DNA from: Acidimicrobiia bacterium | GTDB lineage: Bacteria; Actinomycetota; Acidimicrobiia; Spongiisociales; JAHEDJ01 | Direction: 5' to 3' | Assembly (NCBI GenBank): GCA_035471805.1 | Contig: DATIPS010000019.1 | Coordinates: forward strand, 145 to 64,144 | Length of the DNA: 64,000 nt | In this document: positions 56,206 to 63,757 of the stretch, in pieces | Layout of the letters: the number at the start of each line of letters is the position of its first letter | Position numbering within the stretch: the first letter of the stretch is position 1 | Position numbers and translations under genes: made by a program | Notes under the pieces: generated by a model | The model's database searches: none | What the model was told of the DNA's origin: nothing | Seen by the model: the letters and a program-made list of their open reading frames with translations, nothing else

Positions 56206-56868
56206 CTAGGGGACGTATTGCTCGCGGATGAGAACGATGACGCCGTCATCCACAGTGAGCCACACGCCGGGCTGGAAATCGCGGGATGCTCGTTCCGCCA
56301 GCCAATCTGAATAAGGGACCGTCTCCTCGGTTGAGGGATCACCCGGGTTGGGTAGCCAGGTCACAGCAGCACCTTCGGCAACGGCGAGGAACCGCAGCCC
56401 GGGGTTGCCGTTACGAACGTAGTAGTCGTTGGGGGGCGGGGACTCCTTGCCGTCCTCAGCGGCCGCCAGCGCGGCAGCCTGTCCGTTGAACCAGCAGGCA
56501 AGATCAAAGTCGATCCCGCCGGTGGTCGCCTGATCGACGTACCCGAACCACTCGCCGTCCACCAGGGAGTCATCGGTTGCCGGCGTACAGCCCGAACCGG
56601 CGGCCAGCGAGTTGTCGCCCGGGTTATCGACAACGCCGTTATCCGGCTCAAGGGTGATCGGGGTATCGCCCGCTCCGCCGTCCGGTTCAACCGGGATCGG
56701 GGTATCGCCAGCTCCGCCGTCCGGTTCAACCGGGATGGGCTGGCCGACCTGTTGTTGGGTCGTTCCGCCTGTGGAATCGTCTCCGTCGGCGGTCGCCGCG
56801 TATGCAATCGACGAAACCGCCACCACCATCACCGCGACGCCCATCCATCTGATCTGAGCGCGGCTCAT
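56206..56868 (-). CDS. secreted hypothetical protein with 13-aa tandem repeat
   Basis: ATG 56866-56868 (MSRAQIRWMGVAVMVVAVSSIAYAATA signal peptide). Perfect tandem repeat IPVEPDGGAGDTP x2 (39-nt DNA repeat at 56646-56723). Track ORF's N-extension is the duplicated cytochrome c fragment and is rejected. Confidence 0.55.
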   Translation of the reverse strand: MSRAQIRWMGVAVMVVAVSSIAYAATADGDDSTGGTTQQQVGQPIPVEPDGGAGDTPIPVEPDGGAGDTPITLEPDNGVVDNPGDNSLAAGSGCTPATDDSLVDGEWFGYVDQATTGGIDFDLACWFNGQAAALAAAEDGKESPPPNDYYVRNGNPGLRFLAVAEGAAVTWLPNPGDPSTEETVPYSDWLAERASRDFQPGVWLTVDDGVIVLIREQYVP

Positions 56869-57049
56869 GGTCTTCACTTCCGCCATCCTTTCTTTTTCGT
56901 TTCGCCCAATTCGCGGATTAGACGATCGGGCGGCTCGAGAAGTTCCGACGAAGATCGAGAGGGGGAAGCCGGGTGTCAGCATCCAGGTCTGGCAGGGACT
57001 CCGCCCCGGTGACGTCAGCCCACCAGACGGCGGCGCGCCGACAACCATG

Positions 57050-57214
57050 GACCGGTCCGCACACGCTTCGGCATGCAGTTCGCTCCCGGCAGCGATCAAG
57101 GCCGGATCCGAAGGCTGGTTCCCGCCTCCGTCCGCAGCGCCAGACCCCGAGCAGGCGCTCAGAACGACAACAACCAATAGGATCGGCAAACGAAATGCTC
57201 GCAGTCGGCGGCCC
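57050..57214 (-). pseudogene. 5' fragment of cytochrome c lipoprotein gene (duplicate of 59121..59290), lacks haem site
   Basis: ~165 nt ~97% identical to the 5' end of the intact gene at 58880..59290 (encodes RRLRAFRLPILLVVVVLSACSGSGAADGGGNQPSDPALIAAGSELHAEACA). CxxCH is replaced by unrelated sequence. Abuts repeat copy 1. Confidence 0.7.
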
Positions 57215-57460
57215 TGTTCAGATCGTCGCAGGCGGACCGCTTTCCTTCGCGTCCCGACGTTCGCCTTCAACCGTCGGGACGTTTCGGAGGTCGTTGGTGG
57301 AACCCGAGGAGGCAGACAACCTCAGGGTCAAGGATCACGGCAAAGTGTTTGAAACCTGCGATTGACGCGGCTTTAGGTCGAGCTGACTACACAACCCCAG
57401 GTCAGCGCGTTATCTGGGAGGGCAGTCCATCGACCTTCCGAGCTGTCTTTGACGGATGAC
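57215..57460. repeat. ~245-bp interspersed repeat, copy 1 (candidate structured element)
   Basis: ctgttcagatcgtcgcaggcggaccgctttccttcg...ctgtctttgacggatg, ~85% identical to 61925..62170. Contains conserved hairpin gtcccgacg/cgtcgggac. Confidence 0.75.
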
Positions 57461-57521
57461 GGTAGAAGTTCGGTAGGAGCCCCCCTGATTACCCGACCCG
57501 ACGGAACAGACCGACTTGGAA

Positions 57522-57566
57522 ACCCCAGGCCGTTGACCCGGGGTTTCTGAGTGTCGGAGGGGCGTC
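57522..57566. repeat. attL-like direct repeat: copy of tRNA-Leu 3' end + terminator hairpin
   Basis: gaaaccccaggccgttgacccggggtttctgagtgtcggagggg versus 63641-63685 gaaacccccgttgacctgggggtttctcagtgtcggagggg. 13/13 identity over agtgtcggagggg (tRNA acceptor 3' strand + T-stem) plus homologous hairpin. Confidence 0.55.
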
Positions 57567-57668
57567 TGCAGCCTCTAGTACACGCGATCCTTGGGAGACG
57601 TGGTTGGTCGCCGCGTCGCGTGATTGACCCCGAGGATCGCATGGCATCCGAGGAACTTCGAACGCCCG

Positions 57669-58010
57669 TCAGAGTTCGAGCAGAAACCGAAGGACTCGAC
57701 CAACCTCGAAGATCGTAGAAGGACCGACCTGCCCGAGACGAGCGATCATCCGCCGTTCGGAAACGGACTTGAGGTCCTCGCATTTCGCATAGCTCAACGC
57801 CTCCAATCCGGAATCTTCTGGGTCAATCTCTATGTGTGACGGAAGATTCCGATGAGATGTCGTACAAGGAACGACCATGACCACCCCCGCCGGACTGTCA
57901 TTGAGCGCATCCGCCGAAACCACCACGGCGGGACGGCGGCCCGACTGTTCTCGTCCAACCGGCTCGCCGAAGTCAACCAGCCAGATCTCGCCTCGCCGTG
58001 GGGTGATCAC
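57669..58010 (-). CDS. mazF: MazF/PemK-family type II toxin endoribonuclease
   Basis: MITPRRGEIWLVDFGEPVGREQSGRRPAVVVS...PCTTS typical PemK/MazF fold. Overlaps antitoxin gene by 4 nt. Confidence 0.8.
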   Translation of the reverse strand: MITPRRGEIWLVDFGEPVGREQSGRRPAVVVSADALNDSPAGVVMVVPCTTSHRNLPSHIEIDPEDSGLEALSYAKCEDLKSVSERRMIARLGQVGPSTIFEVGRVLRFLLEL

Positions 58011-58243
58011 GAGCGATCGCTGGCCGCGCCATCTTCAAGGCCACGCTCATGCTCGATCTCGGCCCACGCCACTGGATCTGCTCGAAGATCGTCGAATCCA
58101 ACCTTCATCTGGTCGAAGAACAGGCGCCGTTCTAGCGCATCGGCTGCCTCATCCAGTAGCTGCGTCATCGGACGCCCGGTGGAATCGGCCAGTCTGGCAA
58201 ACCGATCTCTGGTGTTCTCGCTGACTCTGATGGTGGTGCTCAT
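58007..58243 (-). CDS. mazE: type II antitoxin (ribbon-helix-helix / MazE-like)
   Basis: 78 aa, N-terminal RHH-like MSTTIRVSENTRDRFARLA, acidic C-terminus. TATACT -10 element ends ~7 nt before the ATG on the minus strand (leaderless-like). Confidence 0.65.
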   Translation of the reverse strand: MSTTIRVSENTRDRFARLADSTGRPMTQLLDEAADALERRLFFDQMKVGFDDLRADPVAWAEIEHERGLEDGAASDRS

Positions 58244-58570
58244 GAATCGAGTATACCAAGTCGTTGACTAATCAGTCTACATCTAGGGGCACCGAGGAAT
58301 ACGTCATGAGCGTATCCGCTGTTCACCGACGGTGCGGAAGCGACCCGTCGCGGTGTACAGGCATCAACCGTAACCATCCAAGAGATGGACCTCACTGGAG
58401 AGTTGTCTTCTCGCGGTGTCGGAGGATCGATTCGGACCCTAATCCCTCGTGGCACTCCGTCCGGCGAGTTCCCGGCAGCCGGGTAGCCCGGATACGCGCG
58501 CTATCCCCATCCCAGTGAACGGATCCACCTTCCCGAACCGCGCTGTCGAGCGGCGACCCGGGCCGACAGA

Positions 58571-58828
58571 TCAGAAGTCGAACGGGACGAGAGCTCCGTC
58601 GTTCTCGATCAACACCACCGGTTGCGCCTCCCAGGTTTCGGCATCGCCGCCCATGCCTGGGGAGTCGGCCGGCATGCCCGGCAGAGCAATCCCGATCGCA
58701 TCGGGGCGTTCATCGAGGAACTGCAGAATGGCCCCGGCCGGCACGTGACCTTCGATCACATAGCCGTCGAGCAACGCGGTGTGGCACGATCCGACGCCAT
58801 CCAGCCGTCGCAACAAAGATGCCGACAA
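58571..58828 (-). CDS. DUF411-domain (CopG-like copper-associated) protein, short or N-terminally truncated
   Basis: LDGYVIEGHVPAGAILQFLDERPDAIGIALPGMPADSPGMGG matches DUF411 core. Only 85 aa, no signal peptide or Cys motif. Bounded upstream by the cytochrome c stop. Confidence 0.5.
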   Translation of the reverse strand: MSASLLRRLDGVGSCHTALLDGYVIEGHVPAGAILQFLDERPDAIGIALPGMPADSPGMGGDAETWEAQPVVLIENDGALVPFDF

Positions 58829-58879
58829 GAACGGCCATCAATCCGGTTCGCATCCGAACAGGGTATGTGAACTGCTCGG

Positions 58880-59290
58880 CTATGGCGGATACGGCTCGAA
58901 CCCCTCCCGGCGTTGCACATCGCGCACGAAAGCGACAATGGCCTCCACCTCTGAGTCTGAGAGATCGTCGATAGGCGGCATCGGCCCGAATGACCAATGG
59001 TGCGGGGTTACCCCGCGGCGCACCGCCAACAAGAATGCCGCATCGCCGTGGTGGCCGGGTTCGTACACCTCGGACAAGTGAGAAGGACCGCGTTCCGTCC
59101 CGCGAAGGCCGGCACCATGACAGGAGGCACACGCTTCGGCATACAGTTCGCTCCCGGCAGCGATCAAGGCCGGATCCGAAGGCTGGTTCCCGCCTCCGTC
59201 CGCAGCGCCAGACCCCGAGCAGGCGCTCAGAACGACAACAACCAAAAGGATCGGCAAACGAAACGCTCGCAGTCGGCGGCCCTTCCACAT
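58880..59290 (-). CDS. class I cytochrome c lipoprotein
   Basis: Lipobox VVVLSAC. Haem motif CASCHG. Met ligand region (WSFGPMPP). Confidence 0.8.
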   Translation of the reverse strand: MWKGRRLRAFRLPILLVVVVLSACSGSGAADGGGNQPSDPALIAAGSELYAEACASCHGAGLRGTERGPSHLSEVYEPGHHGDAAFLLAVRRGVTPHHWSFGPMPPIDDLSDSEVEAIVAFVRDVQRREGFEPYPP

Positions 59291-59441
59291 TCCGCCGAGA
59301 TGCTAGCCCCGGGTGCGGTCCGGATACCCCCTACTCGCGGCAGCGCAGCCTTTAACGAATCTTGATGTTTGGCCCGGAAGTTGCTGAATGTCCATCGGCA
59401 ACACTTTGGGTCATGACATCAAAGCAAGGAGAACAACGGTG

Positions 59442-59642
59442 ATGTGGGGTTACGGAATGTGGTGGAGCAGTCTGATCTGGCTGATCCTGATCGCAGCGAT
59501 CATCTGGACACTGGTCGCCACCAATCGCCCCGGTCGATCCAACCGCGCCGGCGCACTCGAGATCCTCGAAGAGCGTCTGGCCCGCGGAGAAATCGATGCC
59601 GAGACCTACCGGGCTACCCGGACAGAACTAGAGAGGAACTGA
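59442..59642 (+). CDS. SHOCT-domain membrane protein
   Basis: TM helix (WSSLIWLILIAAIIWTLVA) + SHOCT motif LEERLARGEIDAETYRATRTELE. ATG 59442 (track ORF starts at 59388). Confidence 0.65.
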   Translation: MWGYGMWWSSLIWLILIAAIIWTLVATNRPGRSNRAGALEILEERLARGEIDAETYRATRTELERN

Positions 59643-59645
59643 GAA

Positions 59646-59972
59646 ATGAACAACAAGAGGGAACTCATCATCGCAGCTGCGACTGTCGTCGTTCTAGCGA
59701 TACCGACAATGGCCTGGGCCTTCACCGGTCCGCTGTCTGCCGATCCGCCGGCACCGAACGTTGGAGACGAATCGCTTGACGAGGGATCGTACGACTGGAT
59801 GAACGAGATGCACGACTACATGTGGAACGGCGCCACCGGCGACGGATCGTACGACTCGATGAACCAGATGCACGACTACATGTGGAACGGCGGCGAACTC
59901 CCCGAGGACTTCGCCGGCGGGCCGGCCGGATCAAGGCACCCGATGGGAGGCGGAATGTGGGGCGACCGATAG
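59646..59972 (+). CDS. secreted Met/His-rich tandem-repeat protein (putative Cu-binding)
   Basis: Signal peptide (AATVVVLAIPTMAWA). Two 21-aa repeats GSYDWMNEMHDYMWNGATGD / GSYDSMNQMHDYMWNGGELP (63-nt DNA repeat). C-terminal HPMGGGMWGD. Confidence 0.7.
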   Translation: MNNKRELIIAAATVVVLAIPTMAWAFTGPLSADPPAPNVGDESLDEGSYDWMNEMHDYMWNGATGDGSYDSMNQMHDYMWNGGELPEDFAGGPAGSRHPMGGGMWGDR

Positions 59973-60029
59973 CCCAAACGCGAACAACTGCCCTAGTGAG
60001 TCTGAATCGACAACGCCCCCTACCATCAC

Positions 60030-60731
60030 ATGGTGACTTCAAGACGAATCTTGATCGTGGACGACGAGCGGGACCTCCGAACGATGCTCTCCACGTATCT
60101 GACCGCAGATGGTTTCGAGGTCCTGCAAGCCGGCGACGGCGAGCAGGGCCTCGAGCTCGCGCTCACGAGAAAGCCCGATTTCGTCGTTCTCGATGTGGGC
60201 CTACCCGGCATCGATGGTTTCGAGGTGTTGCGGCGACTGCGAGCATCTTCAAGTGTTCCGGTGATCATGCTGACTGCCCGCGCCGAGGAGGTAGACCGAG
60301 TGGTCGGCCTTTCGGTGGGCGCCGACGATTACGTCACGAAGCCGTTCTCGCCACGAGAGCTGGTTGCACGAATCACTGCAGTACTCCGACGTACCGACCG
60401 CGCTCCGGCAGCATCGTCGGCCGAACTGCTCGAGTTTTCCGGACTCACGATCGATGTCGGATCGCGCGAGGTCAGGTGCGATGGTCGAGAGGTCGATCTG
60501 AGCGCTCTCGAGTTCGACCTGCTGGCTGCGCTCGCACTCTCACCGCGCCGGGTCTTCACCCGGCAGCAACTCATGGAAGAGGTGTGGGGCTGGGACTACG
60601 TGGCGGTCGATCGAGTGGTGGACGTCCACATCTCGAACCTTCGCAAGACCCTGGACGACGACACGTTGAACCCACGCTTCATCGCAACCGTCCGGGGCGT
60701 CGGCTACAAGTTCATCGGTGAATCCCGATGA
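60030..60731 (+). CDS. OmpR-family response regulator (CopR/CusR-like)
   Basis: Receiver domain (ILIVDDE...VVLDVGLPGIDGF) + winged-helix DNA-binding domain (RRVFTRQQLMEEVWGWDYV...RGVGYKF). Confidence 0.9.
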   Translation: MVTSRRILIVDDERDLRTMLSTYLTADGFEVLQAGDGEQGLELALTRKPDFVVLDVGLPGIDGFEVLRRLRASSSVPVIMLTARAEEVDRVVGLSVGADDYVTKPFSPRELVARITAVLRRTDRAPAASSAELLEFSGLTIDVGSREVRCDGREVDLSALEFDLLAALALSPRRVFTRQQLMEEVWGWDYVAVDRVVDVHISNLRKTLDDDTLNPRFIATVRGVGYKFIGESR

Positions 60732-61912
60732 AGAGGTTCACCGGCAAACTCTGGACACGCCTACTGGCAGCGCAGCTACTCATCATTGCACTGGGTGCCG
60801 TAACGCTCATCGTTCTCATCGAACTCCTCGCGCCGACGTTCTTCGCCAACGCCCTCCGCACCATGAACTCGATGATGGCCGACCCGAGTCACATGGGCGA
60901 CATGATGACCGGTAGCTCATCGACCGGACAGTTCACACCGACCGTCCAAGCGGATCTCGAAGCGTCGTTCGACAGTTCGTTCCGCCGCGCCCTGGCAATC
61001 TCCCTGGCCGTCGCCGGGATTGCCGCCATTGGGACAACGGCCTACGCAACGCAGCGGATACTTCGGCCGCTTCAGGCCGTGAGGTCCGCAGCCCACAAAC
61101 TCGCCGACGGTGCCTACGACCAGCGGATCGATCTCCCGCACGAGCAGGAGCTCGCCGACCTGGCTCGGGATGTAAATGCCTTGGCAGAGACCCTGGCAAC
61201 GACAGAGGCTCGCCGCGTCCGCCTCATTTCCGAAGTCGCTCACGAGCTGCGCACTCCACTAACCACGCTCGAGGGGTATCTCGAAGGCCTCCTCGACGGC
61301 GTGTTCGAGCCGAGCAACGACGTTTTTGCCGCGTCCGGGCGCGAGGTTCGCCGCCTCAAGCGTCTCGCATCCGATTTGTCCGAACTCTCACGCGCCGAGG
61401 AGGGTGCTCAATCCCTTCAACTCAAGTCGTTCGACGTCGGAGCTTTGACTCGCGAAGTCGCGGGGAATCTGAGGACCCAGGCGAATGCCAAGGGAGTCCG
61501 GTTGATGGTGGCCGATGGACCGGGACTGCTGCCCGTGACGGCCGACCGGGATCGAGTTGGGCAGGTGCTCACCAATGTGATCGGCAACGCAATCAGTTAC
61601 ACCGACGAGGGAGGCCAAATCACAGTCGGGATGACGGGCAACGACGATTGGGTGACGATCGCGGTTGCAGACTCCGGGCGCGGATTGAGTGCCGATCAGC
61701 AGTCAGCGGTCTTCGAACGTTTCTACCGGGGCGACCCCACTGGTCCGGGGGGAAGCGGAATCGGCCTCACCATCGCCCGCGCCATTGCCCGCAGGCACGG
61801 CGGCGATATCGAGGCGGACTCACCCGGGCCGGGAAAGGGTTCGACGTTCACGATCCTTCTCCCACGCAGTACAGCCGACGACACGGCACGTGGGAGCTTG
61901 GCCGGCGACTGA
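60728..61912 (+). CDS. sensor histidine kinase (CopS/CusS-like)
   Basis: Two TMs + periplasmic loop containing a Met-rich stretch (MNSMMADPSHMGDMMTG). HAMP. HisKA H-box (EVAHELRTPLTT). HATPase_c N, G1, G2 boxes (GSGIGLTIARAIA). 4-nt overlap with RR. Confidence 0.9.
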   Translation: MKRFTGKLWTRLLAAQLLIIALGAVTLIVLIELLAPTFFANALRTMNSMMADPSHMGDMMTGSSSTGQFTPTVQADLEASFDSSFRRALAISLAVAGIAAIGTTAYATQRILRPLQAVRSAAHKLADGAYDQRIDLPHEQELADLARDVNALAETLATTEARRVRLISEVAHELRTPLTTLEGYLEGLLDGVFEPSNDVFAASGREVRRLKRLASDLSELSRAEEGAQSLQLKSFDVGALTREVAGNLRTQANAKGVRLMVADGPGLLPVTADRDRVGQVLTNVIGNAISYTDEGGQITVGMTGNDDWVTIAVADSGRGLSADQQSAVFERFYRGDPTGPGGSGIGLTIARAIARRHGGDIEADSPGPGKGSTFTILLPRSTADDTARGSLAGD

Positions 61913-61924
61913 GGGCTTCGCGGC

Positions 61925-62170
61925 CTGTTCACATCGTCGCAGGCGGACCGCTTTCCTTCGCGGCCCGACGTTCGCCTTCCACCGTCGGGACGTTGCGGTG
62001 GTCGTTGGTGGAAACCGAGGAGGCAGACAACCTCGGGGTCAAGGAATACGACAGAGTGTCTGAGACCTGCAATCGACGCAGCTTTGAGGTCGAGCTGGCT
62101 ACACAACTCCAGGTCAGCGCGTTATCTGGGAGGGCAGTTGATCAACATTTCGAGCTGTCCTTGACGGATG
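61925..62170. repeat. ~245-bp interspersed repeat, copy 2 (immediately downstream of HK stop)
   Basis: See copy 1. Begins 13 nt after HK TGA. Track ORFs 61648..62235 and 56973..57365 lie in it but differ by non-conservative substitutions. Confidence 0.75.
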
Positions 62171-62276
62171 GTGACGGTTTAGCCCTTATTTGGCCCGGTG
62201 TGTCAACCAGAAAGTGGCTAGGCAACTCTGTCTGACGGGTGTTCAATCGGAATAGAACGCAACCGAGAGGGAGTGA

Positions 62277-62621
62277 GTGTCTCTGATGCTGGAATGGATC
62301 TACGCTCGGATCAAGTTCTTCGTTCTTTGCATGGGTCTGTGGGCAGCGGCCGTATGTGGTTTTGTCCTGACGGCAACTTTGAATCAGATTGCGTCTGAAC
62401 AGGCTGTGATTGTGCCTCTGTGGCCTTTCGGCGATGTGGTCTTTGAACCGCCTCTTCGCTACCTGGCGATTTCTCTCGTGTTTCTGGGGCTTGGCATTGG
62501 TCTCGCGATCCCGTTCAACTCTGAGGTCGGCCTGGAACCGGTGCGGAGACAGTGGGCCAAGATCTTGGCCGCTTCTATGCACGGTTTGAAGCGTATCCTG
62601 ACTGCACCTTTCAATCGATAG
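62277..62621 (+). CDS. hypothetical membrane protein (lower-GC ORFan)
   Basis: 114 aa, three predicted TMs. Noticeably A/T-richer codons than surroundings. Confidence 0.4.
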   Translation: MSLMLEWIYARIKFFVLCMGLWAAAVCGFVLTATLNQIASEQAVIVPLWPFGDVVFEPPLRYLAISLVFLGLGIGLAIPFNSEVGLEPVRRQWAKILAASMHGLKRILTAPFNR

Positions 62622-62815
62622 TGCCGCGCCGTGGGCACGCCAGTCGGCTCATGGACTGAGACTTTGAAAGGCTAGGCGCTCCAGGGATTGGCCCTACGAA
62701 GCCTGGCTCGGCGGGTTGGCTACTCGGGGCCATATGCATCTGGTCGGTCACAAGCCCGAGCGCGATAATCGTAGGTGGAACGGAAAGGGAGCCTCGTTGA
62801 AAGAGGCGACTGATC

Positions 62816-63340
62816 GTGAAACGTACCCCACTGATCGCCCTCCTGGCGACTGTTCTGGTCTTTGCGTTTGCGGCACCGGCAACTGCCGGGGGAGCAAACG
62901 ACAACGGAAACGGCAATCGGACGCTCTGGGTCGAAACGTACTCGTCTGTGGGAGTCTCCTATTCGGTGCCTATCTGCGAAGGCGGCATCGTCGTCGATCA
63001 TGTCGAGGCTCAGGGACCATACGAATGGACTAGAACCTTCTTCGGCAAGCCCGACTTCACCAGAGCCGGTTTGAGTCATGTCTCGGTATGGGCGTCTGAC
63101 GATGGCGCCTACCGGCACGTATATCGCGAGAAGCAAACCGTCAACAGTATTGACTTCGGAGGAACCGGCCAACCGAATGTCTACAACATGCATGGCAAAT
63201 GGACTTGGTCTGACCCTGACGGCGTCTATCTAGAACGCAGCACTCTCAATCAAAACCGCTGGGATCAAGACGGCGTGTCGCAGCCGACCAAGTACATCGA
63301 CACGGGCTGGGTGTGCCTGCGAGACACCGTGCTCCCGTAG
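62816..63340 (+). CDS. secreted hypothetical protein (lower-GC ORFan)
   Basis: Signal peptide MKRTPLIALLATVLVFAFAAPATA. Asn/Gly-rich linker. No recognisable domain. Confidence 0.45.
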   Translation: MKRTPLIALLATVLVFAFAAPATAGGANDNGNGNRTLWVETYSSVGVSYSVPICEGGIVVDHVEAQGPYEWTRTFFGKPDFTRAGLSHVSVWASDDGAYRHVYREKQTVNSIDFGGTGQPNVYNMHGKWTWSDPDGVYLERSTLNQNRWDQDGVSQPTKYIDTGWVCLRDTVLP

Positions 63341-63642
63341 CCACGCCGCTGCCGGTTGGATAGTGCGATTCTGGATGGGTCAGGAATTGAAACTCCCCGA
63401 CTCAACTGGACCCCCCGACTTCGGTTGCGGGGTTCCAACATTTCTGCTTTCCGATCCTGGCCCCACACCTTCAGGCAAGATTCTTTCGATAACCCCTGGT
63501 CAGAAAGCCGTTCTATGGGTTTCCGAAGCGTGTCCTGCACCCGACATTCAGGAGATTGGGAGGACTGTCTCCAAGGTGAATGTCACCAAAATGCCACCAA
63601 GAGCAGATTCGTTGGATTGTGGGCGGTTGGCCCGGACAGCAA

Positions 63643-63668
63643 GAAACCCCCGTTGACCTGGGGGTTTC
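63643..63668 (-). terminator. intrinsic terminator hairpin 3' of tRNA-Leu
   Basis: gaaaccccc-gttgacct-gggggtttc (9-bp stem), 4 nt beyond tRNA 3' end. Followed on minus strand by ttcttgctgt. Confidence 0.55.
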
Positions 63669-63672
63669 TCAG

Positions 63673-63757
<85 letters not shown>

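Follow-up and report, generated by a model that had tools for sequence, protein, structure and literature searches.

In a 64,000-nucleotide stretch from an Acidimicrobiia bacterium (hereafter the window), the 5' end of an intact cytochrome c gene, c1, recurs as a near-identical copy of 157 nt (fragment a), which is fused on one side to a non-coding repeat and on the other to a piece of a second, disrupted cytochrome gene, c2. We have very little doubt that this fragment is the dead scar of a rearrangement. A more specific model, in which c2 took up a 1.74-kb patchwork at a single site, has in our estimation an even chance of being correct. The features on which the argument draws are listed below in descending coordinates.

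63672..63757, minus strand: tRNA-Leu(GAG), the anchor of the variable region.
61920..62170: R', second copy of the repeat, beginning 8 nt past the stop codon of the histidine kinase.
60728-61912: histidine kinase (HK) gene.
58880..59290, minus strand: c1, an intact cytochrome c gene of 136 aa (PF00034 and PF13442; lipobox LSAC, CASCH).
58798..58838, minus strand: 5' piece of c2, nt 1-41 (residues MAVLVGIFVATAG), separated from c1 by 41 nt and joined on its other side to the DUF411 3' part.
58571..58797, minus strand: 3' part of a DUF411 (CopG-like) gene (PF04214, E = 1.2e-24), starting GVGSCHT.
58411..58472, minus strand: t2, a probable tRNA-Leu-like remnant (T-arm and acceptor 3' strand), its similarity weaker than that of t.
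57669..58243, minus strand: mazEF-type toxin-antitoxin pair.
58007-58243, minus strand: putative antitoxin of 78 aa, taken from the list of open reading frames.
57669-58010, minus strand: PemK/MazF toxin (PF02452, E = 2.6e-25).
57519..57567, minus strand: t, an att-like remnant resembling the last 11-17 nt of tRNA-Leu with its downstream hairpin, 84-89% identical to 63643-63688.
57208..57458: R, first copy of the repeat, non-coding, 89.7% identical to 61920-62170 with 2 gaps (blastn).
57059..57215, minus strand: fragment a, a copy of c1 codons ~3-55, identical to 59127-59283 at 154 of 157 positions.
56973..57058, minus strand: internal piece of c2, nt 54-140 (codons 19-47), carrying a 1-nt deletion and fused without a gap to fragment a.
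56972..56973: deletion junction; homology to the related contigs L020, L021 and L024 ends at 56972.
56206..56877, minus strand: gene for a predicted secreted protein of 223 aa (orthologue P0001, 99% identical, begins MKTMSRAQ).

Sequence reading, a repeat finder, a three-way alignment and blastn all concur on the duplicate. The template of fragment a is 59127-59283, the 5' end of c1, to which it aligns over 157 nt with 3 mismatches and 0 gaps (98.1%, E = 2.7e-74; blastn of 56800-57600 against the window). Of the mismatches, at 57075, 57178 and 57196, two are synonymous when read in the c1 frame and one replaces Tyr by His. The copy encompasses the lipoprotein-type signal peptide, the linker and the first Cys of CASCH, so that c1 AEACASCHG is represented by AEACA joined to DRSM and the CxxCH of class I c-type cytochromes is incomplete. 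At its other end the c1 codons ATG TGG AAG are replaced by TCT GAA CAG, with loss of the in-frame ATG. Fragment a consequently has neither a start codon nor an intact frame for the cytochrome domain, which in c1 is matched by PF00034 over residues 43-125. On account of the missing start codon, the incomplete CxxCH and the frameshift in the fused c2 piece, it is probably non-functional. No further copies of fragment a, R or t occur elsewhere in the 64-kb window.

The first-pass annotation had reported this duplicate at much the same place with 97% identity, which we find to be 98%, and was right that it lacks the CxxCH haem site, as the copy ends after the first Cys codon. It had further proposed that the duplicate meets the first repeat copy at the start codon; the two do join about the c1 start, but the ATG itself is not retained. 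Its reading of the locus as a boundary scar holds insofar as there is a scar, but it overlooked the second fusion partner, c2 (56973-57058). The accompanying idea of a simple partial duplication across an attL boundary is not supported. Also overlooked were the splitting of c2 by 57059-58797 and the deletion of a further ~3 kb with merR and a copper ATPase. The 157-nt duplicate moreover originates from a protein-coding 5' end rather than from a tRNA as expected of attL/attR sites, and no integrase ORF was found between the two c1-derived copies.

The nature of the disrupted gene emerged from comparison with related strains, in which the order c1-c2-merR-ATPase is intact. An exact-protein look-up with c1 recovered 23 metagenome contigs with two distinct downstream contexts. 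In L001 and L003-L009 an intact c2 (156 aa, Cytochrome_CBB3) lies 41 nt beyond c1, and a divergent merR comes next; in L002 and L010 the downstream context is like that of the window. In BLAST comparisons 56973-57058 is 93-94% identical to L003 1043-1129 and to the matching positions in L001 and L004-L009. Relative to L003 c2, 5 of 87 positions of this piece differ, two of them at a junction, against ~1% in the flanks. In c2 coordinates, only 13-27 nt separate the two pieces that the window retains. Around the intact c1 the window and L003 share 99.5% identity, which identifies this c1 as the orthologous copy.

Beyond merR the ancestral neighborhood is supplied by L020 (GCA_041553835.1), whose first 510 nt overlap the end of L003 at 99.6% identity, so that the two tile into a single order: SHOCT, c1, c2, merR, ATPase, 223-aa gene, Peptidase_MA, Haem_bd and CorA. 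L020 is colinear with the window from 56972 down to 52294 (98.9%), and the internal c2 piece ends at the exact point where homology to L020, L021 and L024 (a 93% relative) ceases. In L020 and L021 an ATPase of 681 aa, preceded in L020 by a partial ORF, lies immediately upstream of the 223-aa gene; it scores 578 bits against TIGR01511 (copper-translocating; cutoff 397) and is accordingly of the copper or heavy-metal P1B type. The window lacks ~3.07 kb of this arrangement, namely c2 from nt 141 onwards, merR, the ATPase and 138 nt downstream of it, the last including a 15-nt flank common to L020 and L024. In more distant Acidimicrobiia, homologues of c1 with 52-63% identity adjoin copper-type ATPases, and this gene-neighborhood linkage supports a probable copper-related role for the module.

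The rearranged region contains four junctions, all with short or imperfect microhomology (3-12 nt). At the c2/DUF411 junction, where c2 reads ...GCTGGATGCTCCGTCGG and the window ...GCTGGATGGCGTCGG, the shared motif is GC[T/C]GGA and/or CGTCGG. The end of R abuts fragment a in the sequence ATCTGAACAGGGCCGC, and in the junction alignment ATGTGAACAGGCCGC, with which R' ends, shows a 12/15 microhomology to ATGTGGAAGGGCCGC, at the start of c1. The join of fragment a to c2 is essentially blunt after GTGTGC, with an imperfect similarity, GTC.ATGGT, nearby, which coincides with two of the five differences of the c2 piece from L003. The junction between c2 and the flank of the 223-aa gene, produced by the deletion, has 3-4 nt, CAC(C). 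The intact order in relatives, the non-homologous breakpoints and the short microhomologies together characterize the region as a rearrangement scar. An unequal crossover between c1 and c2 was rejected, since these paralogues are 31% identical and are not joined at aligned positions.

Between the two c2 pieces lies a block of 1,739 nt (58797 down to 57059), which on the minus strand consists of the DUF411 3' part, t2, mazE, mazF, t, R and the 157-nt c1 piece. The DUF411 part lacks the N-terminal region when aligned to homologues with more N-terminal sequence. The remnant t was detected both by blastn (57519-57562 against 63643-63683, 84%) and by the repeat finder (57540-57567 against 63661-63688, 89%), and mazEF is placed between t2 and t. 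The repeat and both remnants are only 79-91% similar to their counterparts, which suggests that the block is of other origin. Likewise, the 90% identity of R to R', as opposed to the 99.5% identity of the c1 region to L003, points to a different history of the R-bearing block. Its source or template was not found in the contigs searched, and a plasmid BLAST with 56900-59400 was uninformative, yielding only 70-75% matches to DUF411 genes of Alphaproteobacteria. The contig L057, which bears a DUF411 relative (P0210; 91% aa, 83% DNA identity), was considered as a guide to the source and set aside as its context is unrelated, the neighbors being cupredoxin, ArsR and cation efflux genes. As a separate observation, a mazEF pair enclosed by remnants resembling the 3' end of tRNA-Leu is reminiscent of a minimal island or cassette from site-specific integration, here without an integrase.

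These observations can be accounted for by illegitimate, microhomology-mediated recombination between tRNA-Leu(GAG) and the conserved 223-aa gene in an uncultured Acidimicrobiia lineage. The ancestral order would have been the HK and response regulator (RR) genes of a two-component system, SHOCT, c1, c2, merR, the copper P1B-type ATPase and the 223-aa gene. The 1.74-kb patchwork would then have been inserted into c2 at ~nt 41-54, and a separate ~3.07-kb deletion would have taken the rest of c2, merR and the ATPase. A single insertion site is favored by the proximity of the c2 breakpoints, by the orthology of the intact c1 region to the sister module and by the other origin of the block. Counting against a single insertion are the block source, which was not found, the imperfect microhomology between fragment a and c2, the 5/87 differences in the c2 piece, and a probability of ~5-10% that independent deletions would bring the c2 breakpoints this close (13-27 nt within 471 nt).

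The c1 piece could have entered the patchwork in one of two ways. In the first, the resident c1 would have been copied in a series of template switches leading from c2 to DUF411 and from the end of R to the start of c1 and thence back to c2; the 98% identity and the microhomologies fit such copying. In the second, the piece and R would have been fused beforehand and would have come together from a decayed copper module of related type, in which the two-component genes between R and c1 had been lost via the 12/15 microhomology. The first-pass annotation had taken the fragment (97%) to be younger than the repeat (~85%). The repeat pair is real, though its identity is 89.7%, and a younger fragment is plausible on raw counts of differences (3/157 in the fragment against 26/252 in R, Fisher p = 0.001). 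This order of events is not forced, however, as the same contrast restricted to the roughly synonymous sites of the fragment (2 of ~40) gives p = 0.39, and purifying selection on c1 before the copying could equally generate 98% against 90%. The contrast in identity is thus compatible with either mode of entry. A recent simple tandem duplication was rejected, being at odds with 90% for R/R' against 98% for the c1 copy and ill fitting to the c2/DUF411 joint. More tentatively, it is conceivable, if rather unlikely, that the four clustered junctions record a single replication-based event with multiple template switches in a wild actinobacterial population. A polymerase departing from c2 would have copied 1.6 kb of a paralogous island end, switched to the c1 start and resumed in c2; the copper-export module would thereby have been swapped for a toxin-antitoxin pair, and the resulting strain would then have spread across many sampled sites.

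The main rival account, which we regard as possible but doubtful, is that the scar represents what remains of a whole second copper module. Tandem islands, each with R, HK, RR, SHOCT, c1, c2 and so on, would have lain downstream of tRNA-Leu, having arisen by successive integrations or by transfer from a sister strain. The distal module would have suffered three deletions, the first between the R end and the c1 start, the second joining c1 nt 157 to c2 nt 54 and the third extending from c2 nt 141 across the ATPase; the proximal one would have lost the stretch between c2 nt 41 and mid-DUF411. In favor of this proposal, 57059-57567 is colinear with 59127-63688, with the fragment, R and the tRNA-end remnant alike in order and orientation, and the three tRNA-Leu-like remnants (t', t2 and t) together with an integrase fragment in L024 show repeated integration at the locus. 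A deletion of the two-component genes could have used the microhomology shared by the end of R' and the start of c1, and GTC.ATGGT at the other end of fragment a is compatible with a deletion inside a contiguous c1-c2. Yet the account needs at least four independent deletions and one acquisition, and it leaves the near-coincident c2 breakpoints unexplained. Moreover, 90% identity of R to R' is hard to square with two modules of the sister type, when the intact copy is 99.5% identical to the sister module. Both this account and the single-insertion model share one caveat: in L001, the one intact-c2 strain that reaches the HK gene, HK breaks off at codon 187 and continues into unrelated DNA, so that in intact-c2 strains the ancestral order is seen only downstream of this break. 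The unrelated sequence in L001 (ERZ23499261 ZHEN15-1 scaffold_7352) occupies its first 87 nt (1-87), the break corresponding to window 61288, and reflects either that this module has been rearranged in yet another way or that the scaffold is chimeric.

The larger setting is a variable region bounded by tRNA-Leu(GAG) and the 223-aa gene. Beyond the tRNA, L025 carries the core genes secG, tpiA and pgk, and in L024 the equivalent of t lies beside a 63-aa integrase fragment, 1 kb from the 210-aa orthologue of the 223-aa protein. The locus, an island-like region downstream of tRNA-Leu(GAG), is a typical tRNA-linked integration hotspot, in line with the islet boundary suggested at first pass. The 1.47 kb between R' and the tRNA-Leu terminator (62171-63642) has a G+C fraction of 0.53-0.60 as compared to ~0.60-0.67 nearby and has no counterpart between t and R. 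Its ORFs 62277-62621 and 62816-63340 gave no Pfam or NCBIfam match, and the segment may have been inserted separately beside the tRNA as a small unit of its own.

It is very improbable that the arrangement is instead a functional element, be it a promoter-leader fusion of R and the c1 leader that drives the 223-aa gene, a small lipoprotein, or a set of recombination sites of a mobile cassette bounded by the 157-nt or 250-nt direct repeats. Some observations do invite such a reading: an open frame connects R, via fragment a, with the 223-aa gene, many samples share the arrangement, and direct repeats flank mazEF-c1 and the two-component genes. However, the c1 ATG is lost, the frame runs across a c2 piece with a frameshift and across the untranslated 5' region native to the 223-aa gene, and orthologues of that gene start at 56877. 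The segments between the repeats encode neither an integrase nor a transposase. The repeat also gave no indication of function: promoter and terminator scans of R found no consensus sites, a two-sequence consensus fold showed no compensatory pairs and no usable covariation, and Rfam had no match at E <= 1 on either strand of 56900-57700, in keeping with a search of the whole window at gathering thresholds that returned two tRNAs only. With just two copies in the 64-kb window and no terminal inverted repeats reported by the repeat finder, R does not resemble a MITE or another transposable element. Nor is it a widespread repeat, since an exact 25-mer from its most conserved part occurs 0 times in GTDB representative genomes and 0 times in JGI metagenomes.

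The distribution of the two repeat copies is instructive. R' lies behind the HK stop in every HK-bearing contig recovered and is 98.4-100% identical among them; no R-like DNA was found downstream of the closest JGI relative of HK (L035, 77% identical). The copy-1 allele of R is invariant and adjoins fragment a in all cases seen, and no contig was found in which it lies beside the HK 3' end or an intact c1.

Several ORFs in the region are misleading as a result of these fusions. As had been surmised at first pass, ORF 56206..57270 is a chimera that reads through the fragment; to judge from the orthologue, the real gene is 56206-56877. The part upstream of 56877 is a read-through artefact in which the native upstream region happens to stay open; long open frames are expected in DNA of ~62% G+C. 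Exact look-ups of 226-aa, 220-aa and 354-aa versions of this flank ORF, and of a 130-aa plus-strand ORF across fragment a, retrieved no record. The 223-aa orthologue P0001 is present in two NCBI MAGs. No Pfam family matched this protein, the orthologues of which are called at 207-223 aa. The contig of its 80% relative P0004 was dropped as a guide to context, as its neighborhood is unrelated. ORF 58571..58828, encoding the 85-aa DUF411 protein, is likewise chimeric, its first codons being c2 sequence read out of frame, and the frames that cross R are artefacts or chimeras.

Mis-assembly, that is, a collapsed or chimeric repeat in a metagenome, had been a natural initial concern, given that the window comes from a MAG-type assembly and that most short-read contigs break in the 157-nt repeat and at a tandem repeat at 59780-59892. 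This concern can largely be set aside, and we consider an artefact very unlikely, to the point of giving it next to no weight. A look-up with MazF recovered many Logan contigs, among them at least eight (L011-L018, from eight different runs) that cross the junction between R and the fragment at 99.75-100% identity. They span the mazEF side, R and then 50-76 nt of fragment a, and carry two of the three fragment-specific variants, 57178 and 57196. Six of the eight (L011-L016) begin inside the intact c1. All end within 57076-57177, a 102-nt stretch identical in both copies, which is the behavior expected of de Bruijn contigs. The whole arrangement, with both junctions of the fragment, is present in L022 (ENA k141_1311677, 60 kb, ERZ27272662, MEGAHIT), which follows window 59872-46206 in the same order. 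The two sequences agree at every base over 56916-59350; elsewhere 15 SNPs and a 39-nt repeat-unit indel separate them, so that L022 represents a slightly different strain, independently assembled. That three variants tell the copies apart also speaks against a simple collapse. At NCBI the HK protein encoded in the window is on record as HSR44451.1, annotated as a MAG (TPA) from an Acidimicrobiia bacterium.

The tandem repeat just mentioned deserves a brief description. Located in ORF 59646..59972, it consists of two copies, 94% identical, of a 60-nt unit encoding GSYD(W/S)MN(E/Q)MHDYMWNG, within a 108-aa protein without a family match that is encoded between SHOCT and the response regulator. 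L001 aligns to 59780-59892 in two overlapping pieces, consistent with an extra copy, and the short-read contigs L002-L005, L009, L010 and L022 end there.

Viewed against known systems, the scar is of an ordinary kind, a clustered illegitimate-recombination scar at a tRNA-linked hotspot, and no new molecular mechanism or family is implied. With illegitimate-recombination scars in general it shares truncated dead gene pieces, microhomologies of 3-12 nt, deletions of neighboring genes and independence from a recombinase. It differs from them in having four junctions clustered within 2 kb, and from a simple deletion scar in a less common feature, namely that the gene of which it holds a near-identical copy is intact 2 kb away. 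FoSTeS and microhomology-mediated break-induced replication (MMBIR) assemble several templated segments into a patchwork at a single site and show microhomology wherever the template changes. The present locus would resemble their products if it is a patchwork inserted at one site, with a return to within ~13-27 nt of the point of departure; three junctions have 5-12 nt of microhomology. Unlike in those systems, however, the join between fragment a and c2 is poor in microhomology, the template of the 1.58-kb DUF411-mazEF-t-R segment was not found, and such a mechanism is suggested by the sequence alone.

Genomic islands can also accrete in tandem at tRNA genes, leaving duplicated att remnants of the tRNA 3' end. 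The intact tRNA-Leu, followed by variable DNA with two further 3'-end-like remnants and mazEF between them, and the integrase fragment beside the equivalent remnant in L024, recall this process. In contrast to such islands, the variable region of the window is without an integrase gene. Nor is the cytochrome fragment an att site, and its 157 nt of duplicated sequence far exceed the tRNA-derived core in length and are unrelated to it. Finally, homology-facilitated illegitimate recombination in natural transformation joins foreign DNA by microhomology beside a stretch of high identity. The locus likewise combines foreign or paralogous DNA, a microhomology at one end and the high-identity c1 piece next to it, but here the identical c1 stretch is not positioned as an anchor, for it is joined to c2 and not to c1.

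The value of these findings lies in annotation and in strain-level population genetics. For annotation, 56206..57270, 58571..58828 and the frames crossing R are to be treated as artefacts or chimeras. At the population level, the lineage of the window has lost c2, the MerR-type metal regulator and the copper P1B-type ATPase at this locus and carries mazEF instead, while sister strains in other samples keep an intact copper module. The scar is thus a clean marker for two co-existing strain types of this Acidimicrobiia population, which may differ in copper tolerance.

Two minor observations concern proteins of the region. Within the 223-aa gene, at 56694-56732, a 39-nt (13-aa) tandem unit, PIPVEPDGGAGDT, is present in one more copy than in L022. 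The DUF411 homologues listed, most of them lacking a source name and the named ones mainly from Acidimicrobiia MAGs, are all called at only 67-112 aa, and in L057 (JGI 3300041018 Ga0437566_2524627, ~1390-1730) the homologue has an in-frame TGA, reading APD*GCCTGWVGYLQDLG...GSCHTA. The called start of 10 aligned homologues falls at or past this point, and the corresponding region is deleted in the window. The TGA falls exactly at the position of the first Cys of the CGCC motif in canonical DUF411 proteins; the gene could encode a selenocysteine form (U-G-C-C) or be split.
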